From Clostridiales bacterium (GTDB lineage Bacteria > Bacillota > Clostridia > Saccharofermentanales > Saccharofermentanaceae): a stretch of DNA of 56,809 bases. The notes beneath the pieces were generated by a model that did no database searches, had not been told where the DNA came from, and worked only from the letters and a program-made list of their open reading frames with translations. Positions within the stretch are counted from its first letter, which is position 1; each line of letters opens with the position of its first letter. Location: contig JAFWDK010000017.1 of assembly GCA_017513085.1 (NCBI GenBank), positions 1 through 56,809 of the forward strand, read 5' to 3'. A program made the translations under genes and the position numbers. Below are positions 2,766-51,974 of this stretch, in pieces.

Positions 2766-2943
2766 TCTGAATCCTTTCCAAGAAAGAAACCTGCATTTTA
2801 ACTACTCGTTCCCGATGGAGATCGAAGACCGGAAAGATTTTCGTCAAAGACTTCTCGACAGATGCATTGCCGACGATCTCTCCGATGAAGGTGTTTTCGA
2901 AGGGAAAATCAACGAAGAAAGATCGATCCGGGAATTGTTCTGA
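2764..2943 (+). pseudogene. Possible 3' remnant of an unrelated gene
   Basis: Protein-like open frame DLNPFQERNLHF...IRELF-stop with no convincing start or RBS. Confidence 0.3.
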
Positions 2944-3025
2944 TCTACCGTTCGTCTCGCATAAATCGGGTGTGTATGTTACAATCTCCTAGGATCAATG
3001 AAAAATGATTGAAAGGATATAGCAT

Positions 3026-14742: not shown

Positions 14743-14925
14743 ACGTCTCACCTCGTATCCTGTACGGCCGTACATTTATAATAGTGCTTTTTCTGTGGAA
14801 ATGGTTTCACTTTTCCGAAAAAAACATATCGTATTTTTCGAATATAAAAGTACAAGTTCCACACCGGGATCAGATACGTCTTGAGAACGAGAATATAGCC
14901 GTACCACTACATCGATCACTTTGTA

Positions 14926-17397: not shown

Positions 17398-17440
17398 CTA
17401 TCACTGCCTCCTTGAGTGCATCAAAGAAAGAAACCAAAGG

Positions 17441-17511
17441 GGATTAGGATAGGCTTGGAAAGGATATCCTAATCTGTTACTCGTAGTGTAACAGATGCTT
17501 TCAGTATATCA
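17441..17511 (-). promoter_or_regulatory. Conserved promoter + double-hairpin leader, copy 1
   Basis: TGATATACT extended -10 then two overlapping inverted repeats; differs from copy 2 at two positions. Confidence 0.8.
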
Positions 17512-17520
17512 CGGCAAGCG

Positions 17521-17537
17521 CGATCGAGTGGGAGTAA
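17521..17537 (+). repeat. guaA-3'-end-like att scar, copy 2
   Basis: cgatcgagtgggagtaa, exact match to 25156-25172; reads IEWE-stop. Confidence 0.65.
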
Positions 17538-17615
17538 TTGAGCGGATGGTGAAAAAGCGACAAGAGAAAATGTGCTATAATACTTGTGAAATCTATGTTG
17601 CAGCAGGAATCAGGT

Positions 17616-18173
17616 ATGGCGAATTTTACGGAAAAAGCAATTAAGGAGACATTCCTTTCTCTGTTATCGGAAAGACCGCTCAGTCAGATCACAGTGAAGG
17701 ATATTGTCGAAAAATGCGGTGTGAACCGGAATTCTTTCTACTACCATTTCCGGGATATGAAAGCTTTGCTCGAAAGTATCGTGAAGGAAGATGTGGACCA
17801 AATCATGGCGGAACATCCGACTATCGATTCCTTGGAATCCGCATTTGCCACGACTATCGACTTTGCCGAAAAGAACCGTATGATCATCCAGCATATTTAT
17901 AACTCTGTTAACCGCGATGTTTTCGAACAGAATCTGTGGAAGGTCTGTGAATATGTGATCGCCACCTTCGGGGCAACTGCATTCGCAGGGACACCGGTCA
18001 GTGCTTTTGACAAAGAAGCCATATCCGAATACTATACCTGCCAGCTCTTCGGTGTCGCTGTCTTCTGGCTCCGGAGCGGGACGAAGAGTGACATTCACGA
18101 AAAAATATCTAGGATCTGTGAACTTCAGAGAGGCATTATCGAGGAAACCATCCAGAGAAGTTTAGACAGATAA
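17616..18173 (+). CDS. TetR/AcrR family regulator
   Basis: ITVKDIVEKCGVNRNSFYYHF. Confidence 0.9.
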   Translation: MANFTEKAIKETFLSLLSERPLSQITVKDIVEKCGVNRNSFYYHFRDMKALLESIVKEDVDQIMAEHPTIDSLESAFATTIDFAEKNRMIIQHIYNSVNRDVFEQNLWKVCEYVIATFGATAFAGTPVSAFDKEAISEYYTCQLFGVAVFWLRSGTKSDIHEKISRICELQRGIIEETIQRSLDR

Positions 18174-18314
18174 GCCCTTTTGCCTAAAAATTCGACATCT
18201 GGCAACTCGTGTATGAAAACCGTACACGAGTCTTTTTTTGTCCGTTGTGACTGATTCTTCGGGTCGGTAATATGAACACGTTCTTCAAGGATGATGAATT
18301 AAAGGAGGCTTTAT

Positions 18315-19238
18315 ATGAGTGTAATCGAAGTGGAACACTTGACGAAAGACTATGGATTTGGACGCGGTGTCTTTGATGTATCTTTTCATGTGGATGAAGG
18401 CGAGGTCTTCGGATTTCTCGGACCAAACGGTGCGGGAAAATCTACGACGATCCGTCATCTGATGGGTTTTTCCAAGCCGGGTGACGGACACACGCGGATA
18501 TTCGGAAAAGAAACGTTTGCCAGATATGACCAGATCCTGAAAAATGTCGGGTATATCCCCGGCGAGATTGCGCTTCCGGCCGGACTTACCGGATGGGAAT
18601 TTCTTCGTATGATGCATCATGGAAAAGATGAAACGAAAATGAGAGAACTTCTGGATCTGTTTGAACTGGATCCGTCCGGAGAGACAAAGCGGATGAGTCT
18701 TGGCGTGAAAAGAAAGCTGGCTGTGGTTTCGGCGTTCATGAATGACCCGGATGTGCTAATCCTGGATGAACCGACAAGCGGTCTGGATCCGGTGATGCAG
18801 AATGTCTTTATTGACTACATCCGAAATGAGAAAAAGAAAGGAAAAACGATCCTTCTTTCCAGCCATATTTTCTCAGAAGTCGATGCAACCTGTGATCGGA
18901 TCGCAATCATCAAGGATGGAAAGATCGTATCGGATTTTGTAGCAGATGATCTGCGTCATGCATCCCAGAAAAACTACAGTCTCACCTTTTCCCGTCCTAT
19001 TGATTTCGAAGGATTCCTAAGTACCTGCGAAGAAGGAAAAAAGATCTCGATCCTGGAAACGTCCCGCAAGGATCTGAAAGTGATTGTTTCTGTAAACGAT
19101 GCGGACATCAATGAACTGGTCAGTAGACTTTGTGACTTCCCGGTATGCGGGTTCGTGCATCTGAAAGAGACCCTCGAGGATTACTTCATGAAATATTACA
19201 AAGAAGAAAAAGACTTTGGAGGTGCTTTTGCAAAATGA
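18315..19238 (+). CDS. ABC exporter ATP-binding protein
   Basis: GPNGAGKST, MSLG signature, ILDEPTSGLD, SSH. Confidence 0.92.
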   Translation: MSVIEVEHLTKDYGFGRGVFDVSFHVDEGEVFGFLGPNGAGKSTTIRHLMGFSKPGDGHTRIFGKETFARYDQILKNVGYIPGEIALPAGLTGWEFLRMMHHGKDETKMRELLDLFELDPSGETKRMSLGVKRKLAVVSAFMNDPDVLILDEPTSGLDPVMQNVFIDYIRNEKKKGKTILLSSHIFSEVDATCDRIAIIKDGKIVSDFVADDLRHASQKNYSLTFSRPIDFEGFLSTCEEGKKISILETSRKDLKVIVSVNDADINELVSRLCDFPVCGFVHLKETLEDYFMKYYKEEKDFGGAFAK

Positions 19239-20146
19239 CTGCTGTGATAGAACTAAAGAAACTGACAAAAGATTACGGGCAGAGCCGGGGCATCTTCGAT
19301 ATCGATCTTTCCATTGACGAAGGAGAGATGGTGGGATTCGCCGGAACGAATGGAAGCGGCAAGACCACGACGATTCGAAACATCATGGGCTTTTTGGAAC
19401 CGACATCCGGTCATGCGTATATATATGGCAAAGAGGCCTGGAAGCATTCGAGCGAATATTTGAAGGATATCGGTTATGTCCCCGGCGAGATTGCTTTTCC
19501 GGATCTCCCGACGGGTACGGCTTTCCTGAAAAGCCAGGCGAATTTTCTGGGCGTGAAGGACATGTCATACGCGGAAAAAATGATTGAGAAGCTTCAGCTG
19601 GATCCGCGTGCTTCCCTGAAGAGGATGAGTAAGGGTATGAAGCAGAAGACGGCCATCGTAGCGGCTCTGATGGCGGATCCGAGAATACTGATCCTGGACG
19701 AACCGACAACAGGTCTGGATCCGCTGATGCGGGATGCCTTCCTCGACATCATCAAAGAAGAACATGCACGTGGAAAGACGATCTTCATGAGCAGCCACAT
19801 GTTCGAAGAACTGGAAACGACATGCCAGCGGGTCGCTCTGATATCAAACGGCAGGATCGTGGATATCGCAGATATGGATGCGATCCGGAATCCTACGAAG
19901 AGACAATATAAGGTCGAGTTCAAGAAAATAGACGAATACGAGCGATTCAAGACTTTATCCTATGAGATCGTACGAGATCAGGAGAAGCATCTTCAGGTCA
20001 CGGTATCTCTTCCAGGTTCGGAACTGAACAGGCTTTTCCACGATCTGAAAGGGAGCGATGTCCGCTTTATCTCGGAGGTACAGTATAACCTCGACAAGTA
20101 TTTCCGTTCGAAACTTTTTGCAGAAACCGACAAGGAGGAAAAATAA
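19235..20146 (+). CDS. ABC exporter ATP-binding protein (second, paralogous)
   Basis: GTNGSGKTT, MSKGMKQK, ILDEPTTGLD; ATGA overlap with previous stop. Confidence 0.92.
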   Translation: MTAVIELKKLTKDYGQSRGIFDIDLSIDEGEMVGFAGTNGSGKTTTIRNIMGFLEPTSGHAYIYGKEAWKHSSEYLKDIGYVPGEIAFPDLPTGTAFLKSQANFLGVKDMSYAEKMIEKLQLDPRASLKRMSKGMKQKTAIVAALMADPRILILDEPTTGLDPLMRDAFLDIIKEEHARGKTIFMSSHMFEELETTCQRVALISNGRIVDIADMDAIRNPTKRQYKVEFKKIDEYERFKTLSYEIVRDQEKHLQVTVSLPGSELNRLFHDLKGSDVRFISEVQYNLDKYFRSKLFAETDKEEK

Positions 20147-21700
20147 ATGTTCAGTAAATCTCTTTTCAAACAATCCTGTAAAGCCAATGGTATCATGTGG
20201 CTGATCATAACTTTTGCGGTATGTTTTATGCTTTCCTGCGTGATGCTGATCTCAGGCCGCGGTGATATCAGTAAGACGAAAGATGCGATCCAGAATACGA
20301 TCATCGAACAGGAGACCAAGTCTTCCATCGAGAAGCGTGCACTGAATTACTATGAAATCAGTAATTCCGCTCTGCAATACTTCGACAGTGTTTTCGGCGA
20401 AGAATATGTTGCGGTATATAAAGAGGCATTAAGTGGAGGGCTTCCCGAAGACCAGGCAGCTCAATCTGCGCAGATGGGTGCATATAAAAACACCATGGAA
20501 AAGATCGAAAACGAGTATTATCCGGGTGTAGTTCAGTCGTTAGGTTATACGAAGGATTCCACAGAAGATCAGGAAATTAAAGGTGTGATCTTCTATACTC
20601 TGAACCCGATGAATGAAGACGGAAGTTTCATGTTCGACAGTTTCTATCAGGAACACGGAGAGACGCCTCTTCACTACAGTGATCTTATTCCGGGAATGTC
20701 GGATGCGTCACACGCCGAAGCCCGTGACAAATACGCCATGCAGGCAGCCTCTGTTTTTCTTGCCGAAAACATGACTAAAGAAGAATCCATACAGCAGGCA
20801 CTGGATACCTTGGCGGAATATGGTGTGACAAGACAGCAGTATGATGAATTCGGTTTTTCGGACTATGCTCACATCAAATCGATTTCCGAACAGGTGATTG
20901 TCAGTTACCGTGCCGATATTTCGTATCGTCTCGATAATCTGAAAGACGGAGAAACAGAAGATGCCGTCAAAGAAGATGTAACAGCCAAGGAATGCAACAG
21001 CCTTCTTGCCAATCTTCCTCAGGAAGTATCCGAGGCTCTGGATGAGATCGGGCAGATGGATATGTTCGGTATCCTGATCGGATCGATCTTTTATAAGATG
21101 GCAGGTCTTCTTCTGCCGATCATCTACATGATCATGACATCCAATGCACTGATCGCAGGTCAGGTGGACAGCGGTTCCATGGCATATGTACTGGCCACTT
21201 CCGTAAAGCGCCGTACAGTTACCTTTACTCAAAGTGTATATCTGGTTGGTTCGCTGCTCCTGATGTTTATCCTGACAAGCGTAACGAGTGTGATCTGTCT
21301 GAACATTGTCGATGTCACGACGAATCTTACATGGAAAAAACTTCTCCTTATGAATGCCGGTGCTTTTCTCGTCATGTTTGCACTGAGCGGCATATGCTTC
21401 CTGAGTTCCTGCTGGTTCAACAGAAGCAAGAATGCTATGGCCATCGGCGGCGGTCTTTCGATGTTCTTCCTGGTAGCGACGATGCTTGGTCTTTTCGGAT
21501 CCCCGATCCTTCCGTCCATTATCCGTATGGATGCACTGGATTACTTTAACTACGTATCCGTGATCACTCTTTTCGACCCGATCGCGATCCTCGACGGAAC
21601 AAACGGATTCCTGCCAAAATACCTGATCCTTCTGGTTATCGGACTCATTTGCTACATTATCGGTTCCGTGCACTTCAGAAAAAAGGATCTCCCGTTATAA
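20147..21700 (+). CDS. ABC-2 type permease with large extracellular loop
   Basis: N-terminal TM, five C-terminal TMs, IAGQVDSGSMAYVLAT, ends FRKKDLPL. Confidence 0.88.
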   Translation: MFSKSLFKQSCKANGIMWLIITFAVCFMLSCVMLISGRGDISKTKDAIQNTIIEQETKSSIEKRALNYYEISNSALQYFDSVFGEEYVAVYKEALSGGLPEDQAAQSAQMGAYKNTMEKIENEYYPGVVQSLGYTKDSTEDQEIKGVIFYTLNPMNEDGSFMFDSFYQEHGETPLHYSDLIPGMSDASHAEARDKYAMQAASVFLAENMTKEESIQQALDTLAEYGVTRQQYDEFGFSDYAHIKSISEQVIVSYRADISYRLDNLKDGETEDAVKEDVTAKECNSLLANLPQEVSEALDEIGQMDMFGILIGSIFYKMAGLLLPIIYMIMTSNALIAGQVDSGSMAYVLATSVKRRTVTFTQSVYLVGSLLLMFILTSVTSVICLNIVDVTTNLTWKKLLLMNAGAFLVMFALSGICFLSSCWFNRSKNAMAIGGGLSMFFLVATMLGLFGSPILPSIIRMDALDYFNYVSVITLFDPIAILDGTNGFLPKYLILLVIGLICYIIGSVHFRKKDLPL

Positions 21701-21742
21701 AGCACTTGCACTTTTAATGGAGAGCGGGGGTCAAAGATGTTC

Positions 21743-22303
21743 TCACAGAACATCTTTGACCCTCGTTTCCGCTTCCTTTATGATCGTTTCCACATCCGCA
21801 CCATAGATATCGAGACCCACGGCTGTCAGGAGTTTCACTTCCTTAATACCATAAAAATTCTCGGCCAGTGCTTTTACATAACCAAAGCCAAACTCATATG
21901 GTACCAGCGCACCGCCGGCCGTCGTGACATAGTAAAGTTTCTCAGCCTTACAAAGCGGGATCGGCAGGCCCTCGTCCGAATAATCGAACGTCGTACCCAT
22001 CGCATTGATCTGCTCGAAGTATTGTTTGAGAGAGCTTGGAAACGACAGGTCCCAGTATGGTGCCGCGACCACGATCGTATCCGCTGACTTGAACTGCATC
22101 GCCAGATTGAAGATCGGATCATCCCACTGTTTCTCCGCAATCAGGGCATCCCTCTTCTGCAGGAACGCCTCATCCACGACCGGAAAATCGATTTCGGAAA
22201 GCACCACTTCCGTTATCTCCCCGTCCAGTTCTTTCAGAAGCGCATCCGTCAGGCGCTTCGTACGTGAATCCGTTCTCACACATGCATTGATCAGCAAAAT
22301 CAT
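21743..22303 (-). CDS. FMN-dependent NAD(P)H oxidoreductase (AzoR/flavodoxin_2-like)
   Basis: INACVRTDSRT, AAPYWDLSFPSSLKQY, VTTAGG. Confidence 0.85.
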   Translation of the reverse strand: MILLINACVRTDSRTKRLTDALLKELDGEITEVVLSEIDFPVVDEAFLQKRDALIAEKQWDDPIFNLAMQFKSADTIVVAAPYWDLSFPSSLKQYFEQINAMGTTFDYSDEGLPIPLCKAEKLYYVTTAGGALVPYEFGFGYVKALAENFYGIKEVKLLTAVGLDIYGADVETIIKEAETRVKDVL

Positions 22304-22513
22304 AGGCGTCTCCTTCCAAGATGTATCTGATTGCTTTTTAAACTCTTGCATATCCGTATCCAAGAATTGGATCGGTTCTGGCTCAATCAAACCACAAATT
22401 CATCGAATATTCAACCAAGGGCAGCCACACCTGCGCAGTTTATATATTCTGCAAATCCCGCAAGTACTGCGGAAGTGCTACAATATACAGAAAGAAAAGC
22501 AGGAACTCGCATC

Positions 22514-23821
22514 ATGATCTGGGGAAAAACCGAAGTGAATTTCATAAGAGAACTGGACACCACGGACAAGTGGTGGTGTAATTCTGCGGTCTTTTTCTCG
22601 GTAAAGAACGGGAAGAATACGATCTGTGAGAAATGGGGCTCCGAGGACGAAGACTATGATCGTCATATGCACGTGGTTCTGAACGGAAAGCCGATCATAC
22701 AGGCTAAACTTCCTTCATGTCCTACCTGCAAAGGCATGCTGGCCACAGGTTATGGATTGGAAAACATAGACTGTCCGGAACTTGAGGCGGCCAGAATATG
22801 CATGAATTCCGAATTTGTGAGCATACAGGATTCAGCGGAGAAGATCAAGCCGCTTCTGGGATTACTCGGTGACGGGTATTATGTGCTGGCAGATACGCTC
22901 CTCTTTCCATCCGACGGAGATGGTCACTTTTTCTATAAGGTGCCGGACGAACTCCGGTACTATACCGCTACATGTTGTGGATACTATGATCCCTCAATCA
23001 TAAGTTGTGCAGATGCCTTGCCTATGTTCCTTTACCCGACTCAATCTTCCTCACTCATCCAAAACGATCGGGTAGAGCATTATGCTAAGATCATGAAAAC
23101 AGAGAAGAATCCTCCCAGGGCGCTGACCTATCACCTGCAAGGATATATGAATGTGCTTTTGGACGGGCATCATAAGGCATGCGCGGCAGCGAGCCTGGGA
23201 CAGATGCTTCCCTGCCTGACCATTATTCCCTGTCACGGATATCGATTCTCAGAAGGAACGAAGGGTGTAGATCTCCGACAAAAGAATCCGCGGATCAAAA
23301 CGCTTTATTTTGCAAGTCTGGAAGCAGAACCGGAAAAAGAGATCCGCTTCCTGGATATGCCTCAGAGAAAGCCGGAAACGCAGGAACTGCCACTTCAAAG
23401 ATACGAACTTACCGGTACAGGGATCCATTATGAAAAGGATTCCTATCCGACGGTGAAGGACCTGGCCACATTCCTTCATACTACCGAAAAAGTAGACGGA
23501 CTCCTTCCGGATTTTGATCCGGTCGTTCTTGATAAACTTATCCACGATGATTCGGATAAGGCAGATTACTACCTGGAAGCGATCATGAAATTTATGCCGT
23601 ATTTATGTCCGGAAAGAGCCTACGATCTCGCCAGACGTATTGTGCAAAGAGGGGATGGTCACGGCCGTCGGAAACGCGTTCGGGCGGCTCTCTTGTATCT
23701 TTTGAAATTCCGGAATGATGAGACCGAAGCACTTATTGCCGATTTCTGCATCTATCATGAGGAGGATAATGAGAATTCGGCTATTGCCAATTCCTATTGG
23801 AAAGATAGCCAGTCATTCTAG
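22514..23821 (+). CDS. Hypothetical protein with CPTC and LLDGHHK motifs
   Basis: Long ORF with RBS AGGA; ParB/Srx-like DGHH motif. Confidence 0.75.
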   Translation: MIWGKTEVNFIRELDTTDKWWCNSAVFFSVKNGKNTICEKWGSEDEDYDRHMHVVLNGKPIIQAKLPSCPTCKGMLATGYGLENIDCPELEAARICMNSEFVSIQDSAEKIKPLLGLLGDGYYVLADTLLFPSDGDGHFFYKVPDELRYYTATCCGYYDPSIISCADALPMFLYPTQSSSLIQNDRVEHYAKIMKTEKNPPRALTYHLQGYMNVLLDGHHKACAAASLGQMLPCLTIIPCHGYRFSEGTKGVDLRQKNPRIKTLYFASLEAEPEKEIRFLDMPQRKPETQELPLQRYELTGTGIHYEKDSYPTVKDLATFLHTTEKVDGLLPDFDPVVLDKLIHDDSDKADYYLEAIMKFMPYLCPERAYDLARRIVQRGDGHGRRKRVRAALLYLLKFRNDETEALIADFCIYHEEDNENSAIANSYWKDSQSF

Positions 23822-23922
23822 AGCTAACTGCTAAAATTGTATATCTGTACACGCCGACATATAATAAAGACATATTGAACCTGGGAAAAATCGAAAAGCA
23901 GGATTGCCAGAAAAGCTAAGTT

Positions 23923-25149
23923 ATGAAACAAAAAGATCTGAAAAAGAATATAAAACATATAGTTTCGTCCGTTCTTTCTCTTTCCATTCTTTTGGCAGCT
24001 GCCGGTTGCAGAAAGAACGTAAAAGATATAGCTACTGACAATACCGGTTCGTATGAAACAATACCGTCAACCGAGACTCTCGCCACGTCAGATGAACCAG
24101 ATCTTTCGAAAGAAAGTGTTTCTACTAAATATACCGGTTCATACGAAATAGCAACACCGACCGGGACTCGTGTTGATTCAGATGACCCATATTTGCCGGA
24201 AGAAATCGTGTACTGGGATCCCGATAGAGAACTTATGCCAGAATATACTCTGAAAGAGGCAACCGAGAAATACGCATTCATCGTAGACCATACTACTCTG
24301 ATCTATACTGCATGCGACGATCTTGAGGCGCATCACACCTTCATTTGTTCTGATTATGGAGATCGGTTGTTCTCGAACTACAATAATTTCGATTGTCTGG
24401 ATCCAAACGGCGAATCCCACAAATGGACATTCTTGCCTTTGGAATTGGACACCTTAAAATGCAGTTCTTCCAAGCAGCTGATCGACAATCTGGCCACGTT
24501 ACTCCCACCTCGTTTTTCCCAAAAGTATGATATATTTTCGGAAACGTCTTCAACTCCTGAAACCAAGGTCATTGAAAGCACGGATAACTATGCTCTCATT
24601 TATCTCCGAAATGATGACAATGTTGCTCTATGTTTGGGACGGCCTCTAGGCAAAACCTGGCTCTTGATAAGTTGTTACACCTATAAGGGTTCGCAAATGA
24701 CAGAAGAAGACATTTCAGATTTTAAACGTTATGCCGAAATCTTATTTGATCACCTAAGTCCGGATGATGGCATCGAACCATACATCTATGACAAGATCGT
24801 AAATACTCCTTTTCTGGGGGGAATGCATCTTACAAGTTTCAATTCTCTTAAGGAAATAAGTGGCACATCCATCAGCATCTACGCCCGCAAAAACACTTCT
24901 TCACTGCTTAGTATTCGCATCACTCCGGATTCAGGAGACCTCGATCCTGAAAAAATGTCGGAACATAGTGACTGGGAAGATATAGGCGACATGAAAGTCC
25001 GCAAAGGAGACTATGGATCTAACGAGTTTTACTTCACTATGGACGGTGTTCCTTACCTGGTTTTCTATCAAATTAGCACGGGTGAACATTCTGACTTTGA
25101 TTCATCCGAGGATCTTTTACAATTCATTCGCGAAAACTATTGCGTCTGA
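23923..25149 (+). CDS. Lipoprotein, paralog of 38032-39135
   Basis: Lipobox AAGC; shared blocks such as PEYTLKEATEKYAFIV and GRPLGKTWLLI. Confidence 0.85.
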   Translation: MKQKDLKKNIKHIVSSVLSLSILLAAAGCRKNVKDIATDNTGSYETIPSTETLATSDEPDLSKESVSTKYTGSYEIATPTGTRVDSDDPYLPEEIVYWDPDRELMPEYTLKEATEKYAFIVDHTTLIYTACDDLEAHHTFICSDYGDRLFSNYNNFDCLDPNGESHKWTFLPLELDTLKCSSSKQLIDNLATLLPPRFSQKYDIFSETSSTPETKVIESTDNYALIYLRNDDNVALCLGRPLGKTWLLISCYTYKGSQMTEEDISDFKRYAEILFDHLSPDDGIEPYIYDKIVNTPFLGGMHLTSFNSLKEISGTSISIYARKNTSSLLSIRITPDSGDLDPEKMSEHSDWEDIGDMKVRKGDYGSNEFYFTMDGVPYLVFYQISTGEHSDFDSSEDLLQFIRENYCV

Positions 25150-25172
25150 CAGGAACGATCGAGTGGGAGTAA
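25148..25172 (+). repeat. guaA-3'-end-like att scar, copy 3
   Basis: caggaacgatcgagtgggagtaa reads GTIEWE-stop, matching the GuaA C-terminus PP(A/G)TIEWE. Confidence 0.7.
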
Positions 25173-25239
25173 GTCGTGAATGTTTTCCTCCGCGCGGATG
25201 CTGACGCAAAGGCGCGTCTGACTGATACACCCTGGGTTG

Positions 25240-27696: not shown

Positions 27697-27740
27697 CTAT
27701 TTCTCCCTCCTTGACTGCATCAAAGAACAAAGACCAGAAC

Positions 27741-27811
27741 GGATTAGGATATGCTTGGAAAGGATATCCTAATCTGTTATTCGTAGTGTAACAGATGCTT
27801 TCAGTATATCA
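27741..27811 (-). promoter_or_regulatory. Conserved promoter + double-hairpin leader, copy 2
   Basis: 71-bp element ending 45 nt upstream of the ATG. Confidence 0.8.
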
Positions 27812-27873
27812 TGTTGCACTTGCCTAGTTCACTGATATAGATGATTCCATCTTCCCAGAAAATGTAGAGAGTA

Positions 27874-30264
27874 TCAGCCGCGTTCCTGAACGATGGTTTT
27901 GCATCTGCTCTGGATGATATCCGCCACATCATCAACATTCTTCTGCCCGAGCAGATACGCAGGCGCTTCCTCGTAGATAATCAGCATCACTGCCGGGTCA
28001 GTCTTTCGGACTGCGGTCACGCTCTCGACAATAGAGACAAGTTCTTCAGCCATATCAGGAGTAAGCTTGGAGATCTGGTAGTGAGAATCAGGATCCTGGT
28101 TTTTTAACTTCTCTTCACTTTCGGCAATCAGTGCTTCATTCAGTCTGTCAAGTCCGGAACGCGAAATCGGGAATCTAATCGCTCCGGTTAAGTCCTCTGT
28201 TTCGGTATTTGAAAGAATGAAGCGGATAAAGTCCCATGCCTCCTTACTATTCTTCGAATAGGCAGAAATACCGACTGACGTGGCTACATTCGCGACCACA
28301 CCGTTTCCGTTATTTCCCGGGAAACCAGAGAAAGTGATGTCATTTCCATACCTCGCAAGATAATCTCCATATTCGCGGAGACTGAACATATACATCATGT
28401 ACCATGCGAGTTTTTTATCCTCAAAGAGTGACATATCATCACGTGATTCTTCCCTCCGGTTTAGATTGCGGATACCGTATTTCTTCACGATTTCCAGAAT
28501 CTTCTTAAACGCATCGTTATCAAAGTCTACCGTCTGCGATGAATAATCGATAAAGTTCTCGCCACACTCGCCCAGGAACATCACAAGGAAATCTTTATCA
28601 TCGGTCTCATACATTACGCTCACATCGGAAGGCAGCGCGTCCATCTGTTGCATGAATTCATCATAGGAACGCGGTTTCGCATCACCAACCAGTGTCTTAT
28701 TTCCTATCAGACCATAGAGATCAAACTCGACAGGAAGCTGGTATAACTTTCCTCCGGATTCCTGTGCCCGTAGGATGTTATCAAAGTATTGACTTCTATC
28801 TAGACCCGTACAATCTGTCGCATCAATCAGAGGATTCAGATCGATAAGTACTTTGTCCGAATCGAATTGGGAATACCTCGAAAAACCGGCAAGCACATCC
28901 GGACCATCTCCCGAAATAATATCGAGATACACTCTATCCGACATATCTGCCTCATTATTCATGAAACCGCCAGATGATCCAACATCGGCAGTATAATCGT
29001 AGAGAATGACTCGGCAAATGGACGACGAATCTGTATTATACTTAATTACTTTCTCCCGGTTGATCGCATCGAGAAACTCGCCGACATACAAGCGTTTCTT
29101 ACCCGCATATGGGTTCTCGGCAACACGGATAGCATGAAGAACATGCGGACGAACACTATATGAGCCATCTGAATCCACATCCTCCTTCAAAGAAAGAAAA
29201 CAATATTCATCGTCGGAGACAACTTTCGCCTTTCGCAGAACCCCATCTGAGTTATAATCCGTATCACTCCAGGAAAACTTCTCTTGCGACTTGGAAGGAT
29301 CCATAAGATCCATCTTTTTCAATCCATTCTGCGAATACACGTAGATACCGTCCGCAGAGTTGATCATGGTTTCACTCGTTTTAATCGGAATCTTCTCTCC
29401 CACAAACCGGCAATTCTTCGTATCGATTTCCTTGAGACAGTCGTCAATAACCTCAAAAGACATATAATCGTAAGAGAAAAATCTGCCATAGCATTTCCCG
29501 TCCTGAAAGTAGACTTCCCTTGAAAAAGCCTCTTCTTGGATATCACCTTTTTTATTTCCGTCCGCATCGAAAATGGTGACTCCGTCAAATGTGGCACATA
29601 CCAAAGTGCCATCTGGCATCATCACGGCATTTTGAATATATGCGGCACCTAGTGTCCGAATCTTCTCCAAACTACCATCAGGCTGCATCTTCTCAAGAAA
29701 AACCTGATCATCATCTGCTACGATAGCAAATGTTTCCCCATTCGGGTCTTCAAAAGATGTAAGAATATTCTCCTGAAAAACACTCTGCGTATGTCGAAGG
29801 AGTTTTCCGTTCAGATCAAATACAGCGTTGAAATGCTTGGAGTATTCAGCTTGAAGCTTCTGCAGTTCTTCGATTTCCCCGTTGCTTTCGAGCTGCTTCA
29901 TGCGGCTTCTTACATTCTGCGGCACCTCATATTCGATGTAACACTGCGTCAGCGAAATTGTATTCCCCACAAACTGAATATTGTCCCGGTCGATATCAAT
30001 AGATGCGATCGTCTTTCCATCTGAACCCGGAAGTTCTAGCTGCATGTCCACAATATCGAAGAACGGATCGGTTGACTGAATCACCGTTTTGTCTCCTGTC
30101 GGACCGCTACTTATCTCGGTGCCGGAGTCTGATCCGACACTTACCAACGTATCGGAGTTTTGCCCGCTCGAATTCGGCACATCATTATTCGGATCTCTTT
30201 TACAGCTTACGCCTATCATCATCGCCGCGCAAAGAAGCGCAAGTGCACGTTTTCTCTTTTTCAT
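27874..30264 (-). CDS. Large solute-binding-like lipoprotein (paralog C, divergent)
   Basis: Lipobox GVSC; SGDGPDVL, GKLYQLP, AWDFI, EEAPAY; ends IVQERG. Confidence 0.85.
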   Translation of the reverse strand: MKKRKRALALLCAAMMIGVSCKRDPNNDVPNSSGQNSDTLVSVGSDSGTEISSGPTGDKTVIQSTDPFFDIVDMQLELPGSDGKTIASIDIDRDNIQFVGNTISLTQCYIEYEVPQNVRSRMKQLESNGEIEELQKLQAEYSKHFNAVFDLNGKLLRHTQSVFQENILTSFEDPNGETFAIVADDDQVFLEKMQPDGSLEKIRTLGAAYIQNAVMMPDGTLVCATFDGVTIFDADGNKKGDIQEEAFSREVYFQDGKCYGRFFSYDYMSFEVIDDCLKEIDTKNCRFVGEKIPIKTSETMINSADGIYVYSQNGLKKMDLMDPSKSQEKFSWSDTDYNSDGVLRKAKVVSDDEYCFLSLKEDVDSDGSYSVRPHVLHAIRVAENPYAGKKRLYVGEFLDAINREKVIKYNTDSSSICRVILYDYTADVGSSGGFMNNEADMSDRVYLDIISGDGPDVLAGFSRYSQFDSDKVLIDLNPLIDATDCTGLDRSQYFDNILRAQESGGKLYQLPVEFDLYGLIGNKTLVGDAKPRSYDEFMQQMDALPSDVSVMYETDDKDFLVMFLGECGENFIDYSSQTVDFDNDAFKKILEIVKKYGIRNLNRREESRDDMSLFEDKKLAWYMMYMFSLREYGDYLARYGNDITFSGFPGNNGNGVVANVATSVGISAYSKNSKEAWDFIRFILSNTETEDLTGAIRFPISRSGLDRLNEALIAESEEKLKNQDPDSHYQISKLTPDMAEELVSIVESVTAVRKTDPAVMLIIYEEAPAYLLGQKNVDDVADIIQSRCKTIVQERG

Positions 30265-30303
30265 AACACATCACCACGCAAGTTTTTTCTTTCCTCGTTC
30301 CTG

Positions 30304-32742
30304 TCAGCCGCGCTCCTGAACGACTGCCTTACTTCGTTTCTGAATGTTTTTAACCACATCATCAAGAGTCCTGTCACCGATAAAATAGCCAGGTGCCTCT
30401 TCCTGGATGATCATCATTGCAGATGGATCAGATGAGCAGGAATCATGGATGTTCCCGATCACTTTCTTGAGTTCTGTTACATCATCTTCACTCAGATGTG
30501 CAGATTCATATATCATATACGATTCTTTATCCGGATCTTCCCATCCGAGCCGGTTTTCTTTCAACGACAGTTCCATCTCCATATCAAAAGCCTTGCGATT
30601 GACCGGGAATCTGAAGTAATATCTTCCGCAATATAATTGCGGTTCATATTCAAGGAAATACCGGATGATGTCCCATGCCTCGCTTTTAAGCGGAGATGTC
30701 TGGGAAATAGCAAGTGACGTAGACTTCTCAGCCATTGCACCTCTTCCATCTATACTAGGATTGCCAACAAAGCACACTTTCCCGTCACACAAAGTACGCA
30801 TGTGTCCGAAATCATTAAGTGAATGGATGGACTGACTTAATGCAACGATCATGCCTGCATCAAACTGTACTTGAGGATGCATATTGTTCCCTGTCTCAAT
30901 CTCACTTTCAAGATAGCTCTTCTGTAATTCTCCTGATGTCATCGGAAGTCCATGGTTCTTCACCAGATCCAGGATCTTCGCGAATTCCGGATCATCGAAT
31001 ACGACTTTACGGTTGTCATAATCCAAGAAGTGACTGGTCGTCCCGTTTAGAAGGGTCTCCATAAGATCACTTTGGGAAACCTTACCCAAGATACTGATGT
31101 TTTCAGGCAGCGATCGGCTGATCTCCTCAAACTCATCGTATGTCCAACCAGTCCTTTCACCCACATATTCCGTATTTGCAACCATGCCGTTCACGGAAAA
31201 ATTGAGAGGCAGCTGATAAAGTTTTCCATTTCTTTCATACGAACGGAAGATATTGTCAAAGAACAGACTTCGATCCAGAGGATCACTTCCGTCGATCAAG
31301 GTATTTAGATCCACCAAGGCACGTTCCGTATTAAATTGGGAGAAAGACCCGAAATTCATAAGTATATCCGGTCCGTCACCGGCCAAAATCTCCAGATATA
31401 CCTGATCCGCAATCAGGGATTGTTCTTCCGTACTGGACACCACAAGCTGATACATACCTGTGTATAGGCTGCTTTCTCCAGAATAATCCTGAACTACTAT
31501 CCTTGTCTTCTTTGCCGGATCAAGATTATAGGCCGTAAGTGTATTGGCAAAATCTCTTCTCAAATCTCCGATAAATGCCAGATAAAGGATATTCTTTCCG
31601 GCATGCGGATTCTTCTCCTCACGATGCATGTGAAGAAGATGAACATCTTCTGAGATGTTTTCAAAATTCAGTGCTATACCATCATGCGAGTGACAGGCCA
31701 TGTAGATATCGTTATCTGACGCCAGGCGAATCTGCGGGTCCCAGTGTGTTTCGCGATACCGGTTATCTGTATCACTCCAGGAAAGGATCATCTGCGGATC
31801 CTCGCTTGAAAGCAGATTATATTTTTGAATCCCATTTCCAACCGTTGCATATACAGCGTCGCTTCCTTGTATCAGCTTATCACCATTTATTCTACCGGTC
31901 ACATCAATTTTGTCCCCGACTTTTTTCCCTGTAACCGGATCAATTTCATACATGTATGCAATCGGCGGATTGGATGGATCGTACACGTCATCGATCGAAA
32001 CATAAGCATAGTATTTTCCTTCAATCTGGAAGATTCTGGAAATTGAGTTAAAAATCGGTTCCTCATTAAGAAGCTTCCCTTCAGGGCTGAACAAAAGAAG
32101 AGTAGACACGTCGTTACATAGAAAATTTCCATTCTCCATAAAAAGCATGTCCGTTACCAGATTGTGCTCATCCCTATCAAGAGTGATGCTCTCAATCAGT
32201 CTTCCTTCAGGTGATATGTCATAGAGAACCATCGTGCTATTGTAACCATTTCCATTGTATGAAGACAACAAAGCCTTCGCTTTTCCGGAAGGATCTTCAA
32301 CTAATCCTACTAATTCTTTACCTGAAGGAATGTAGCTGAAACCCTTCATCTTTCCATCCAGGCTAAATACCGACAGACCTCCCCGCCGATAACTCTCATA
32401 TTCTTCATCCATTTTCTTCCGTTCTTCTTCGGAATACTTCAACCAGTTTTCTCTATATTCACTCCATTGCTTTTTAAACTCTACAGGCATGACATACGTT
32501 TCCAAAGTTTCAACTACGATACAATTTGAGAATATTTTTATTTGTCCGATAGCTCTGCGTTCCACTACTTTTCCTTCAGGAGATTCAAAATCGAGCAGGA
32601 TATCTTCACAACTGAAATATGGATCCGTCTCTTGCACGACGCGCTTTCTCGGCTCTTTTTTCTTCTTGTTGCAACCTGCAAGCGGCAACAGAATTGTCAT
32701 GCATAAACAAGCAGCTATTCCTCGAAGTATTAACTTTTTCAT
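30304..32742 (-). CDS. Large solute-binding-like lipoprotein (paralog D)
   Basis: Lipobox LAGC; ends VVQERG. Confidence 0.85.
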   Translation of the reverse strand: MKKLILRGIAACLCMTILLPLAGCNKKKKEPRKRVVQETDPYFSCEDILLDFESPEGKVVERRAIGQIKIFSNCIVVETLETYVMPVEFKKQWSEYRENWLKYSEEERKKMDEEYESYRRGGLSVFSLDGKMKGFSYIPSGKELVGLVEDPSGKAKALLSSYNGNGYNSTMVLYDISPEGRLIESITLDRDEHNLVTDMLFMENGNFLCNDVSTLLLFSPEGKLLNEEPIFNSISRIFQIEGKYYAYVSIDDVYDPSNPPIAYMYEIDPVTGKKVGDKIDVTGRINGDKLIQGSDAVYATVGNGIQKYNLLSSEDPQMILSWSDTDNRYRETHWDPQIRLASDNDIYMACHSHDGIALNFENISEDVHLLHMHREEKNPHAGKNILYLAFIGDLRRDFANTLTAYNLDPAKKTRIVVQDYSGESSLYTGMYQLVVSSTEEQSLIADQVYLEILAGDGPDILMNFGSFSQFNTERALVDLNTLIDGSDPLDRSLFFDNIFRSYERNGKLYQLPLNFSVNGMVANTEYVGERTGWTYDEFEEISRSLPENISILGKVSQSDLMETLLNGTTSHFLDYDNRKVVFDDPEFAKILDLVKNHGLPMTSGELQKSYLESEIETGNNMHPQVQFDAGMIVALSQSIHSLNDFGHMRTLCDGKVCFVGNPSIDGRGAMAEKSTSLAISQTSPLKSEAWDIIRYFLEYEPQLYCGRYYFRFPVNRKAFDMEMELSLKENRLGWEDPDKESYMIYESAHLSEDDVTELKKVIGNIHDSCSSDPSAMMIIQEEAPGYFIGDRTLDDVVKNIQKRSKAVVQERG

Positions 32743-32786
32743 CTGTTTCTGCCTCCTTGACTACATCAAAAAACAAAGACCAGAAT

Positions 32787-32909
32787 AGATTAGGATATGC
32801 TTGGAAAGGATATCCTAATCTGTTATTCGTAGTGTAACAGATTAGGATATGCTTGGAAAGGATATCCTAATCTGTTATTCGTAGTGTAACAGATGCTTTC
32901 AGTATATCA
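32787..32909 (-). promoter_or_regulatory. Conserved promoter + leader, copy 3, with exact 52-bp tandem duplication
   Basis: 32787-32838 equals 32839-32890; the -10 overlaps the stop codon of the upstream gene. Confidence 0.85.
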
Positions 32910-33668
32910 TGTTGAACTTGTCTCGTTCGCTGATATGGATGATGATTCCATCTTCCTGGAAGCGGTGTTTTCACTATACTCAATTAAGACGATTTGTTCT
33001 TTCTCAAAAGCGATTTCTCCTACCGCATTTGTTTTTTCTGTTTTGATATCTACAAACGACGTACTTGAAATCGTAGCATTATAAAGAATAAGCTTGTCGT
33101 CCTCAATACTAAACATCATATCGTTATCATAATTCTCGAAAACGAACGCTACCATCTTCTTGGTTGCAAAATCAAAGTATCCTACTTGCGAACGATGGAT
33201 TCCAGAACCCCACGATGCAATATAGTAAAGCTCTATCTGACCATCATTATTCATGTCTGCAATAGCCAGGGAAGTAAGTCCGCATCCTCCAAACCACCAT
33301 TGTATGGGATAGATTACATCCCCTACCATTAAGTAGCCGACACATGACTTATCAAACTTAAAAACCAGAAAACCATACTTCGTATATATCTCTTCAGGTG
33401 TTACATTGTAACACTCATCATCTTCGTAAAATTCCGGCAGCTCAGTCAGTTTATCGAGAAAGTCCTGTACCTTGTATTTAGACGGGAACAATTGGAAAAC
33501 CGTCATTTCGGATTTGGGCTCAGTGCTTTCAGACATGCTTTCCACTTTTACCGTTCCCGTCTCATCAGAACCAGGGACGGTTTGATCGACAGGAGTTTTT
33601 CCGGAACAGCCATAAACAGCTATTCCAAATATTATTATCAGCACGAATTGAAAGATTCTCTTGATCAT
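32907..33668 (-). CDS. Lipoprotein of unknown function
   Basis: Lipobox VYGC; DMNNDGQIE calcium-binding-like loop. Confidence 0.8.
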   Translation of the reverse strand: MIKRIFQFVLIIIFGIAVYGCSGKTPVDQTVPGSDETGTVKVESMSESTEPKSEMTVFQLFPSKYKVQDFLDKLTELPEFYEDDECYNVTPEEIYTKYGFLVFKFDKSCVGYLMVGDVIYPIQWWFGGCGLTSLAIADMNNDGQIELYYIASWGSGIHRSQVGYFDFATKKMVAFVFENYDNDMMFSIEDDKLILYNATISSTSFVDIKTEKTNAVGEIAFEKEQIVLIEYSENTASRKMESSSISANETSST

Positions 33669-33692
33669 GTTTTCTCCTCGGTATTTCCTTCA

Positions 33693-34973
33693 TTAGCCTT
33701 TCATTTCCGGATCCGGCTTCTCCAGTCTTTGATCAACAGTTGAATACTCTTTGGAATACAAGCATTTCCCCGTAGTAGCATCGACTGTGATGCAGTAATA
33801 AGGATAGTATTGACCAACCTCAAAGTAAAGCTGCCATACCGGTATCAGGAAGGTTCTCTCATCTGTATAGTCATATGTCGAAAGATCGTAGTTGGTGAGC
33901 GGAAGATAGGTAAGTTCCGCACAATAAAACTTCATCTGATCAATCGTACGATATGTCGGCGGTAAATAGAAATACTCCACAGCCTCCTTAATTCCATCCA
34001 TGCATTCGGAAACAGGTTTAATCGGCAGATTTGACTTTACAATTGATTTTATAGTGAAATCACCCGTTCTCACCATCTGTACAACCGTATCCCCACACTG
34101 ATAATGGCCCGTAGAAGTGGTAACCAGATTTGAGCCTTTTGCAGTAGTCAGAAGATCTTCGTAATCATAAACACCATCAGGCATGGAAATGTTATACATC
34201 GTTCCGTACACAGGAATATTATCTATGTACCTGTCAGCAAGACTAATGTAATGCAGCGTGTCATACTCTTCCGGGAAATACGGAGGTTCACCGGGAGCAA
34301 GACTTGCTTCGCGCGGAAATGTACTTCCGTCCAAATCAAAAACCAGAACGCGATTGTTCAATGTATTCTTTCCCATGCCTGTACGAAATGGGAGCTCCAC
34401 CCAGTTTTGAATGTTTCCGATCGTTGTAACATGCATACTAGCTATTGTATTGGAAAAAGTATCCTCTGGTGGTTTATATGTAATCAAATCAACATCTTTA
34501 GGGTATGGCGTATCCTCATAGTCCTCCGCCCGCAAAAAAGTGTTGAAAGGCATCCCGAAAAACCATCTTTGGACCCAGAATAAATCATATTCGTACGACC
34601 AGTTTTGGCTCTCCATAAAACTCATGCTCGATTCCATTCTCACATGTTCATTATTCCATTCACGCGTTAAATGGAGTGGAATATCCACTTCGATTTCATA
34701 TACATTTGCTACTCCAAAACTGTTATCCAGAATGACAAAATTATCTGTACAATACTTTGCCAATTCCGTTCCAGCTATAGGATTTACATACGTTTCAGGC
34801 GTATTGGATAGTTCTCCCGTATCAACAGTACTATCCGCCACTTCAAATACTAAGGTACTGCTTTCAGAAGATCCTTCGGCAGACGCGCTATTGCAGGACG
34901 TCATCAGTGATGCTTCCACTAACATCGTCACGCATATAAGACCTGACATTATACGGCGTGTAACCTCTTTCAT
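33693..34973 (-). CDS. Lipoprotein of unknown function
   Basis: RBS AAGGAG; MTSC lipobox; C-terminal LIPVWQ...VDATTG. Confidence 0.8.
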   Translation of the reverse strand: MKEVTRRIMSGLICVTMLVEASLMTSCNSASAEGSSESSTLVFEVADSTVDTGELSNTPETYVNPIAGTELAKYCTDNFVILDNSFGVANVYEIEVDIPLHLTREWNNEHVRMESSMSFMESQNWSYEYDLFWVQRWFFGMPFNTFLRAEDYEDTPYPKDVDLITYKPPEDTFSNTIASMHVTTIGNIQNWVELPFRTGMGKNTLNNRVLVFDLDGSTFPREASLAPGEPPYFPEEYDTLHYISLADRYIDNIPVYGTMYNISMPDGVYDYEDLLTTAKGSNLVTTSTGHYQCGDTVVQMVRTGDFTIKSIVKSNLPIKPVSECMDGIKEAVEYFYLPPTYRTIDQMKFYCAELTYLPLTNYDLSTYDYTDERTFLIPVWQLYFEVGQYYPYYCITVDATTGKCLYSKEYSTVDQRLEKPDPEMKG

Positions 34974-35011
34974 TTAATACCGACTCCTTGATTTCGCCGA
35001 GAACTGTATGC

Positions 35012-35062
35012 AGGATATCCTAATCTGTTATTCGTAGTGTAACAGATGCTTTCAGTATATCA
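35012..35062 (-). promoter_or_regulatory. Conserved promoter + leader, copy 4 (truncated; hairpin 1 only)
   Basis: 51-bp match to copies 2 and 3; lacks the 3' arm of hairpin 2. Confidence 0.8.
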
Positions 35063-51914: not shown

Positions 51915-51960
51915 TTGACATCCTTAGACTATCGGAGTAGTACGGACTATAGAAATAGTC
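51915..51960 (+). promoter_or_regulatory. Promoter with two BlaI-type operators
   Basis: TTGACA 51915; ACTATcggagTAGT (51928-51941) and GACTATagaaATAGTC (51945-51960). Confidence 0.7.
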
Positions 51961-51974
51961 TGGAGGTTCCGATT

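Follow-up and report, generated by a model that had tools for sequence, protein, structure and literature searches.

We describe a 52-nt two-hairpin unit that precedes four lipoprotein genes in the window, the 56,809-nucleotide stretch of DNA from a Clostridiales bacterium analyzed here, and that recurs in related rumen MAGs 25–35 nt before start codons. Its conservation, predicted fold and genomic context make it an about even proposition that the unit is a new structured leader RNA, read by an as yet hypothetical factor and spread by recombination.

Searching the whole window with a 35-nt core of the unit and allowing at most one mismatch returned five matches at four sites, all on the minus strand, where the chance expectation is 0 and none of 100 dinucleotide shuffles contained any match. 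These are the four sites, at the same coordinates, that a first-pass annotation made from the letters alone had singled out. That annotation treated each site as a single element of ~71 bp, where we distinguish two parts, a promoter box and a 52-nt unit that is separable from it. The features are as follows.

17499–17511, minus strand: -10 box of copy 1, TGATATACTGAAA, an extended -10 TGnTATACT plus GAAA
17443–17494, minus strand: 52-nt two-hairpin unit of copy 1, type A, CTGTTACACTACGAGTAACAGATTAGGATATCCTTTCCAAGCCTATCCTAAT
17409–17427, minus strand: hairpin 3 of copy 1, TCTTTGA/TCAAGGA; mean P(unpaired) of the Shine-Dalgarno (SD) sequence 0.14
14926–17397, minus strand: g1, 823-aa lipoprotein; C-terminal solute-binding domain, N-terminal half unexplained
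27799–27811, minus strand: -10 box of copy 2
27743–27794, minus strand: 52-nt unit of copy 2, type B, with two differences from type A
27708–27726, minus strand: hairpin 3 of copy 2, predicted to occlude the SD; SD mean P(unpaired) 0.11
25240–27696, minus strand: g2, an 818-aa lipoprotein, paralogue of g1
32897–32909, minus strand: -10 box of copy 3, whose TGA doubles as the stop codon of the ORF at 32907–33668
32841–32892, minus strand: 52-nt unit of copy 3a, first of a tandem pair
32789–32840, minus strand: 52-nt unit of copy 3b, second of the tandem pair
32754–32772, minus strand: hairpin 3 of copy 3, predicted to occlude the SD; SD mean P(unpaired) 0.16; a C>U change keeps the pairing as G.U
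30304–32742, minus strand: g3, an 812-aa lipoprotein paralogue
27874–30264: g3b, which follows g3; a 30–33% identical paralogue without a unit
35228–35194: terminator-like hairpin upstream of the copy 4 -10 box, listed by the terminator scan
35050–35062, minus strand: -10 box of copy 4
35012–35045, minus strand: truncated unit of copy 4, hairpin 1 plus the hairpin-2 5′ arm, with the break in the hairpin-2 loop
33693–34973, minus strand: g4, a 426-aa putative lipoprotein

Comparison of the copies refined the earlier description. Copy 3 (32787–32909) is a perfect head-to-tail duplication of the 52-nt unit (32841–32892 plus 32789–32840), which the annotated coordinates had spanned but the accompanying text had passed over. 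Copy 1 does carry exactly the two substitutions reported for it: an A>G change gives hairpin 1 an extra C-G pair, the stem extension that had been noticed, and an A>C change costs hairpin 2 its top pair. Copy 4 was said to keep only hairpin 1, and hairpin 1 is indeed kept, but so are the -10 box and the 5′ arm of hairpin 2, divergence beginning inside hairpin 2 after that arm; the truncated unit matches model positions 1–34 with an nhmmer E of 1.5e-9. The unit stops 45–46 nt short of the start codon at g1–g3 and, in its truncated form, 38 nt short of that of g4. As the annotation had it, g4 is unrelated to g1–g3; it has no Pfam match. As a lead only, g4 looks like DUF6034.

The predicted extended -10 promoter in the window reads TGATATACT, a match to the consensus. 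The 11-mer TGATATACTGA occurs 10 times in 1.32 Mb, against a chance expectation of ~0.6 estimated from sequence length and 4^11, and nine of these occurrences fall in predicted transcription units bearing the hairpin unit. A promoter scan of the window did not list this promoter, because it has no good -35. Box and unit come apart in relatives: at three loci from three MAGs (L004, L006 and L012) the box lies ~530 nt upstream of the unit, just ahead of the ribosome-binding site of an intervening 163-aa ORF, and the unit begins 2–3 nt past the stop codon of that ORF and 25 nt before the lipoprotein start, so that by its position the unit is well inside the predicted transcript and far from the box. 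At L001, the box-to-unit distance is 17 nt greater than in the window. Transcription usually starts ~7 nt downstream of the -10 hexamer, and hairpin 1 in the window starts 8 nt after it; a start at the usual spacing would therefore place hairpin 1 at or within ~3 nt of the predicted mRNA 5′ end.

The unit is laid out as two adjacent inverted repeats, 7-7-7 for the first and 9-13-9 for the second, with a hairpin-1 loop of 7–9 nt and a hairpin-2 apical loop of UCC. As RNA, the unit of copy 1 folds at -16.2 kcal/mol (z -5.7, 0 of 200 shuffles as stable) and that of copy 2 at -13.8 kcal/mol (z -5.6). The two-hairpin fold is both the minimum-energy and the centroid structure in types A and B, L001 and L050 (z -4.1 to -6.3; 0/200 shuffles equally stable), while L005, with one broken hairpin-2 pair, gives a z of -0.96 and 29 of 200 shuffles as stable. 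Across 13 sequences, 11 of them distinct, 97.2% of the cells pair, versus 26–42% when partners are slid. Double changes occur at three pairs, which 0 of 500 shuffles reach (3 of 500 reach the observed double changes when the apical helix is included), all three stemming from one sequence, L050. This divergent copy, found independently by nhmmer (E 8e-4), retains both hairpins through its three double changes and keeps the hairpin-1 loop core CTACGA while stem pairs change; preservation of the fold by compensated changes suggests selection on pairing. Three one-sided changes still pair on the sense strand, as G.U or U.G; the reverse holds at one position.

This conservation stands out against that of the neighboring genes. 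The g1, g2 and g3 proteins are 50–57% identical to one another and their DNA, in windows along the coding sequences, ~50–60% identical, versus 97–100% in the element. Fourfold-degenerate sites are saturated (JC 0.9–1.2 among g1, g2 and g3, and 0.9–1.7 with the L004-group gene included), and among the same four genes the unit differs at 0–2 of 52 positions, so the contrast drawn in the first-pass annotation between a near-invariant element and strongly diverged proteins holds when the comparison is made with synonymous sites. Beyond the box and unit, the flanks are unrelated or ~80% identical. From the identity or near-identity of copies at old paralogues, we infer that the module has been spread or homogenized by recombination more recently than the genes diverged.

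In all, 13 units were found at 12 loci, every one facing the downstream gene and ending 25–46 nt before its start. They occur in four non-homologous gene contexts, namely the family lipoproteins, g4, an FtsX-type permease (L001) and an uncharacterized membrane protein (L050), which bears out the earlier description of the element as portable. The genomes that share the unit are close relatives, exemplified by a GH43 neighbor that is 94.6% identical between L006 and the window, and the independent lineages are accordingly few: a window/L004 genus-level group, L001, L005 and L050. Inspection of upstream DNA showed that 8 of the 17 close family genes on the tree have no unit, which is therefore not required for the family.

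A further pairing is confined to part of this set. The T-rich stretch noted after hairpin 2 pairs with the SD in copies 1–3; in copy 1, for instance, pairing of TCTTTGA with TCAAGGA would occlude it. Within the window, such an SD-sequestering hairpin, in which a U/C-rich strand pairs with the SD, was found in copies 1–3 only (P(unpaired) 0.11–0.16). Among copies 1–3 and L016, three of the five loop positions of this hairpin 3 vary, but its stem persists, one C-G pair having become U.G. SD occlusion is not a property shared by units in general, the corresponding P(unpaired) being 0.82 in L050 and 1.0 in copy 4, and hairpin 3 is lineage-specific.

Our working model takes the conserved part to be a structured RNA module of 52 nt, made up of two adjacent hairpins, transcribed within the mRNA and situated 25–46 nt upstream of the start codons of genes whose products are exported or membrane proteins. 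In the window its copies would be driven by the predicted extended -10 promoter, and in copies 1–3 the module would be combined with the SD-occluding hairpin 3. It may act after transcription, on mRNA stability, on translation of the downstream gene or on both. We propose a sequence-specific trans-acting partner, protein or RNA, that reads the module, because CTAC in the hairpin-1 loop core and CCTT in hairpin 2 are invariant in 13/13 units while some stem pairs change in compensated fashion. More tentatively, and as a possibility that we would not favor at present, a dedicated RNA-binding regulator or a small ligand could recognize the unit, the two together defining a post-transcriptional envelope-protein regulon within a clade of rumen Clostridia; unit and box would then serve as a plug-in cassette, carried from gene to gene by recombination and so bringing new members into the regulon. 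The first-pass annotation had offered three options, a cis-regulatory RNA or attenuator, a dual operator and a homology anchor. Its RNA option gains from the L004-type arrangement, from the constant orientation ahead of the ribosome-binding site and from both the compensatory changes in L050 and the G.U changes favoring the sense strand; attenuation and a simple operator are weakened.

Identity of 52/52 between old paralogues nonetheless exceeds that of a normal functional RNA and points to recent copying, for which no function is needed. The unit might then be a passive or selfish small intergenic repeat that recombination or a trans-acting enzyme has spread, with its near-identity due to recent copying and any effects on genes incidental. 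Such a repeat would account for the identity of units at loci where the genes have reached synonymous saturation, for the sharp edges of identity at both unit ends, for tandem duplication having occurred twice, once with each unit type (type B in the window, type A in L012), for the truncated copy and for a patchy distribution on the family tree that needs at least four changes (quick tree). It would also suit L016, where promoter, unit and g1 are 98% identical in non-syntenic flanks. We still judge it unlikely, since 13 of 13 units share one orientation just upstream of a ribosome-binding site and the L050 fold is preserved through compensated changes. In addition, no target-site duplication or shared duplication was seen in the unit flanks, no transposase or recombinase lies in the window or recurs near units, and no phage or plasmid record matches the unit.

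A second alternative acts at the DNA level, with the two inverted repeats bound by a dimeric transcription factor, or by two of them, so that a set of envelope-protein genes is repressed or its transcription road-blocked. Both hairpins are also perfect DNA palindromes, and in the window the first of them would span roughly +1 to +25 relative to the predicted promoter, where repressors classically bind; a palindrome overlaps or adjoins the predicted promoter in window copies 1–4, L016 and L001. Only copies 1 and 4 have regulator genes beside them: copy 1 a TetR gene divergent from g1, copy 4 an AraC gene on its upstream side. The symmetric arm changes in L050 would fit an altered half-site and are expected of palindromic protein-binding DNA too, and one position (C/A in type B) pairs only on the other strand. 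At L004, L006 and L012, however, ~530 nt, including an ORF, separate the -10 box from the unit downstream of it, an arrangement inconsistent with simple operator function at that promoter, and at L001 the spacing to the box is shifted by 17 nt. No regulator family recurs beside units across the nine sources compared, the spacers are as conserved as the arms (CTAC in all 13 units), which is unusual for operators, and the three wobble changes favor the sense strand. We therefore hold operator function to be improbable.

It is also quite improbable that the copies exist chiefly as recombination anchors, direct repeats of at least 71 bp supplying homology to delete, duplicate or swap lipoprotein genes behind a shared promoter and so vary the cell surface. 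The window does place four direct repeats within 18 kb ahead of paralogous surface lipoproteins, and relatives show mosaic junctions: in the close relative L016, g1 with its leader has different flanks, the 10 nt preceding the box matching copy 4 rather than copy 1 and the 3′ flank resembling that of g2, and at L010 homology with orthologues ends within ~0–20 nt of where the unit begins on its 5′ side. Because all these loci come from MAG contigs, however, the mosaic flanks may be assembly artefacts, and anchoring leaves unexplained both the hairpin-preserving changes in L050 and the single units before single-copy unrelated genes. With no recombinase in the window and none of 13 units inverted in internal orientation, the comparison gave no sign of an invertible or site-specific recombination switch, although a recombinase may be encoded elsewhere; anchoring may nevertheless occur as a side effect. 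The least probable reading is an attenuator in which hairpin 2 and the following T-rich stretch end transcription early unless a signal prevents it: the element sits in a leader and T-rich sequence follows hairpin 2 in several lineages, but intrinsic terminators have a G+C-rich stem directly followed by a U run, whereas hairpin 2 contains only two G-C pairs and is followed by interrupted T's that, in the window, are taken up by the SD hairpin. Moreover, no alternative antiterminator pairing is conserved across lineages, and the terminator scan left hairpin 2 unflagged while listing the terminator before copy 4, which looks genuine.

None of the 4227 Rfam 15 models matched at its gathering threshold anywhere in the window, in keeping with the annotation's failure to recognize a known riboswitch, and permissive scans of copy 3, copy 1 and L050 stayed far below threshold (best 22.6 bits versus 70, 18.3 versus 34.1 and 18.1 versus 55). 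A literature search found no paper matching the unit. Two known tandem-hairpin RNAs were considered and set aside. Guanidine-II (mini-ykkC) RNAs have two hairpins, each capped by an ACGR tetraloop; here the hairpin-1 loop is 7–9 nt, its ACGA is not a tetraloop, the hairpin-2 loop is UCC and Rfam gave no match. ANTAR-type targets consist of two small hairpins whose hexaloops have A at position 1 and G at position 4, whereas the loops here are 7–9 nt and 3 nt.

Four other systems share features with the unit. Mycoplasma vlp/vsp cassettes likewise combine clustered paralogous surface lipoprotein genes, a near-identical promoter and leader, and diverged proteins, but no site-specific recombinase, inversion or repeat-tract phase switch was seen here, and our unit also fronts non-lipoprotein genes. 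Pneumococcal BOX and Neisseria Correia elements are co-transcribed intergenic repeats that form RNA hairpins and occur in high copy and both orientations. They resemble the unit in modular build, tandem repeatability, sharp edges, near-identical copies, gene-adjacent position and an associated promoter; in contrast, all 13 units here face a downstream gene ahead of its ribosome-binding site and have no terminal repeats or target duplications. The ermC and aprE 5′ stem-loop stabilizers of Firmicutes would be alike if the transcription start has the usual spacing, with hairpin 1 at the predicted transcript 5′ end in the window. Such stabilizers need structure rather than sequence, whereas the loops here are invariant, the L001 unit is ~17 nt further from the box and the unit at L004, L006 and L012 is operon-internal. 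Finally, orphan structured leader RNA motifs, discovered through comparative genomics and curated in Rfam with ligand or partner unknown, differ in that copy identity here is far above what is usual for them, a conserved promoter box is attached and no Rfam 15 model matched; like the unit, they are short conserved hairpin motifs in the 5′ leaders of functionally related genes, which for the unit encode envelope proteins, and they are likewise detected by conservation together with pairing-preserving changes.

A search of the window with the 35-nt core of the element returned five minus-strand matches with at most one mismatch, and none of 100 dinucleotide shuffles contained a match, confirming the repeated leader that the first-pass annotation had placed at four sites (copies 1–4). 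Its parts, as read from the site sequences, are as follows:

Box (extended −10), TGATATACTGAAA: minus strand; first part of the element at all four sites
GCAT spacer, 4 nt: minus strand; between the box and the 52-nt unit
Two-hairpin unit, 52 nt, copy 1, CTGTTACACTACGAGTAACAGATTAGGATATCCTTTCCAAGCCTATCCTAAT: minus strand

The copy-1 sequence of the unit (type A) is changed at two positions in copies 2 and 3 (type B), and copy 3 comprises two units arranged head to tail. Copy 4 had been described as retaining only hairpin 1. Hairpin 1 is indeed kept and hairpin 2 is incomplete, but the 5′ arm of hairpin 2 is kept along with the box, and divergence begins inside the hairpin-2 loop.

Copies 1–3 front paralogous lipoprotein genes (g1, g2 and g3; 812–823 aa, 50–57% mutual identity) that carry a C-terminal solute-binding domain resembling sugar-binding proteins, CbpC and YesO among them. 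The N-terminal half is unexplained: residues 1–430 of g2 (25240–27696, minus strand) matched nothing in Pfam or NCBIfam. Its language-model look-alikes were Reg_prop (19% of one cluster) and SBBP (79% of another), a model-based hint of beta-propeller-type repeats that we treat as a lead only. As first described, copy 4 precedes an unrelated gene, g4, which encodes a putative lipoprotein of 426 aa with no Pfam match. A more distant fourth paralogue, g3b (30–33% identical), follows g3 and lacks the element. Between g4 and copy 3 lies a 253-aa ORF (32907–33668, minus strand) with no family match, whose TGA stop is the TGA of the copy-3 extended −10; its last ~50 nt are homologous to non-coding DNA upstream of copy 2, making its 3′ end doubtful as coding sequence.

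When the g1, g2 and g3 loci were aligned at the nucleotide level, windows over the element were 90–100% identical and the coding sequences ~50–60% identical; identity from hairpin 2 to the signal peptide was ~80%, and the DNA 5′ of the box was unrelated. Fourfold-degenerate sites of the three genes are saturated (Jukes-Cantor distance 0.9–1.2), whereas the units before them differ at 0–2 of 52 positions. The element is thus conserved beyond the synonymous sites of the adjacent genes, and the original description of a near-invariant leader before strongly diverged proteins stands.

The lipoprotein family is narrow, with 40 matches among 5.8 billion proteins (32 of them at ≥45% identity), mostly from metagenome assemblies. 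An alignment of 33 family sequences, used to scan species-representative genomes, returned 76 loci, nearly all from rumen or gut Clostridiales MAGs. We searched these loci and the window (1.32 Mb in total) for units by BLAST, regular expression, nhmmer and covariance model. The four approaches were concordant on units outside the window, and the covariance model found none in this space additional to the BLAST/nhmmer set. The loci bearing units were:

L016: one unit
L004, L006 and L010: one unit per locus
L012: a tandem pair of units
L001: one unit
L005: one unit with 7–9 changes
L050: one divergent unit, detected by nhmmer (E 8e-4) when the model excluded L050

All units are oriented towards the downstream gene, ending 25–46 nt from its start codon. 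That gene is a family lipoprotein in L016, L004, L006, L010, L012 and L005, an FtsX-type permease of 986 aa in L001, and a membrane protein of no assigned kind in L050. No unit was present in the inspected upstream DNA of 8 of the 17 close family genes on the tree, and unit presence or absence changed at least four times on what was a quick tree rather than the product of a careful search. N runs (masked or unresolved bases, X in translation) break ORFs in L006 and L010, one such run falling towards the 3′ end of the family gene in L010.

These relatives bear on the earlier view of a single ~71-bp element. Box and hairpins do adjoin in the window, but elsewhere they are separate modules. The 11-mer TGATATACTGA occurs 10 times in the 1.32 Mb, against ~0.6 expected by chance (length / 4^11), and six occurrences lie immediately 5′ of a unit: the four window sites, L016, and L001 (with 17 extra nt). 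In L004, L006 and L012 it lies immediately 5′ of the ribosome-binding site belonging to an ORF for a 163-aa membrane protein, and the unit begins 2–3 nt after the stop codon of that ORF, giving the order box, ORF163, unit, lipoprotein gene and a box–unit distance of ~530 nt. The tenth, in L013, is in a canonical promoter (−35 TTGACT) without a unit. Placement immediately 5′ of the first gene’s ribosome-binding site fits the box being a promoter, in which case the unit would be transcribed, either internally or 5′-proximally in the mRNA. An ECF-sigma promoter, considered because of an ECF sigma gene after g1, was set aside, as we saw no ECF-type −35/−10 shared by the copies.

Folded in isolation, units of types A and B and those of L001 and L050 adopt an identical predicted two-hairpin structure (z −4.1 to −6.3; none of 200 shuffles equally stable); the L005 fold is weak (z −0.96). 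Across the 13-unit alignment, 97.2% of cells are paired, versus 26–42% when partners are slid. Three pairs carry both-sided changes, a result matched by none of 500 shuffles, or by three of 500 when the 3-bp apical helix of hairpin 2 is included. L050 is the source of every one of the three double changes, so this covariation is suggestive of RNA pairing, short of proof. Three one-sided changes keep pairing as G·U or U·G on the sense strand. The L050 unit keeps CTACGA as the core of its hairpin-1 loop where stem pairs have changed, and CTAC is invariant in all 13 units, L005 included; constant loops on changing stems are the pattern expected of a hairpin read by a partner. Rfam 15 gave no match in the whole window at gathering thresholds, and relaxed-threshold scans of L050 and copies 1 and 3 gave only chance-level hairpin look-alikes far under threshold, in keeping with the initial failure to recognise a riboswitch. 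The 71-nt element had no match in phage and plasmid collections, and in the portion of the literature searched the hairpin-1 14-mer was absent and keywords retrieved nothing relevant.

Taken together, we favour, at about an even chance, a new 52-nt two-hairpin leader RNA before envelope genes, driven by an extended −10 in the window, probably affecting mRNA stability or translation via a putative partner, and spread by recombination. Among the options first proposed (regulatory RNA or attenuator, dual operator, homology anchor), a structured leader RNA is the best supported, with the other three kept as rivals. That the hairpins are instead a pair of DNA operators seems unlikely. A palindromic DNA site would show similar covariation, and one position runs opposite to the sense-strand wobble pattern; however, a simple operator of the box promoter is hard to reconcile with the L004, L006 and L012 order, where the unit lies ~530 nt away.

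In copies 1–3 and L016 the T-rich stretch between unit and start codon is predicted to pair with the Shine-Dalgarno sequence, whose probability of being unpaired is 0.11–0.16 in copies 1–3; the stem of this third hairpin is kept (one C-G becoming U·G) and its loop varies at three of five positions. Predicted values elsewhere are 0.21 (L005), 0.31 (L004), 0.51 (L001), 0.82 (L050) and 1.0 (copy 4). By these predictions hairpin 3 is lineage-specific, and a Shine-Dalgarno or start-codon occlusion switch conserved across lineages found no support, being seen in the window lineage only. The hairpin-1 5′ arm can also pair, by prediction, with the start-codon region in that lineage; we give this no weight since it is missing in the others. 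Attenuation of transcription by the leader we regard as very improbable, the lowest of the alternatives.

We then considered how independent the copies are. A GH43 protein beside the L006 unit is 94.6% identical to that of the window, and L016 shares blocks of 98–99% identity with the window, so the window, L016 and the loci arranged like L004 form one genus-level cluster; the 52/52 identity of copy 1 with the L004 group is therefore between old paralogous loci, not distant species. The L005 and L012 units differ at seven positions though from one MAG, indicating that homogenisation is not genome-wide. In the L050 MAG, family proteins are just 27–35% identical to g2, and the unit is the most divergent of all. 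These patterns fit a slowly drifting functional element, with recent copying or gene conversion making several copies identical.

Signs of copying include sharp identity edges and the truncation of copy 4, and tandem duplications in the window and L012 differ in unit type. L010 homology to orthologues ends within ~0–20 nt of the unit. Promoter, unit and g1 in L016 (9875–12472) are 98.2% identical to window 17523–14926, ending at the g1 stop codon; the flanks are non-syntenic, and the 10 nt 5′ of the L016 box match copy 4. Other shared blocks (88–99% identical) are rearranged (L016 6844–7553 = window 22449–21740; 2107–3271 = 4171–3007), reflecting either a mosaic genome or a MAG assembly artefact. 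As the loci are MAG contigs, some of these copying and recombination signs are possibly artefacts. No recombinase or transposase was found in the window or recurrently near units, and across nine sources no linked regulator or recombinase recurred, only family paralogues. A passive repeat is, in our estimation, improbable, and a recombination anchor more doubtful still. An invertible switch was rejected (no inverted variants, no recombinase), as was an integron attC-like site, suggested by eye from the arm sequences: there is no integrase, units lie upstream of genes, intervening segments span 2–10 kb, and genes occur on both strands.

Several neighbouring features were recorded. Directly downstream of g1 (13230–14775, minus strand) are an ECF-type sigma factor (14170–14775) and, overlapping it, an ORF of 338 aa that matched no family and may encode an anti-sigma factor; an ECF sigma homologue (26% identical) likewise follows a family lipoprotein gene in L010 (3166–3744), and the lipoprotein may be part of a surface-sensing module. 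A block divergent from g1, between copies 1 and 2 (17586–25149, plus strand), holds a TetR-family regulator, after which come genes for two ABC ATPases and an ABC-2 permease, plus two large ORFs that matched no family. A 538-aa protein (46572–48188, minus strand) carries sigma regions 2 and 4 of the ECF type in the ~165 residues at its N terminus, followed by a long C-terminal extension that is unexplained, and a BlaI/MecI-type repressor is paired with a BlaR1-type M56 peptidase sensor at 51915–53251 (plus strand). In L001, two direct repeats of TCTTGCATATTT precede each of two promoters (~1390–1440 and 6040–6100), those of a family lipoprotein gene and of the unit-bearing FtsX-permease operon, and look like candidate binding sites of a common activator.

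Under the leader RNA reading, the unit would act on the mRNA stability or translation of the downstream envelope-protein gene, a putative partner would mediate the effect, and recombination would carry the unit from gene to gene. Rumen and gut Clostridiales of this kind are uncultured, fibre-associated bacteria, and downstream of the unit lie genes for large surface lipoproteins of the sugar-binding type, along with other envelope-protein genes; a common leader would give a handle on how the cell surface is co-ordinated in them. A 52-nt, two-hairpin motif with invariant loops would be a compact bait for a new RNA-binding regulator, and the presence of exact copies at ancient paralogues, of tandem duplications that arose independently and of a shortened copy offers a small natural example of module transfer between genes. 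Many orphan leader motifs are known, so a new leader would not be surprising in kind.
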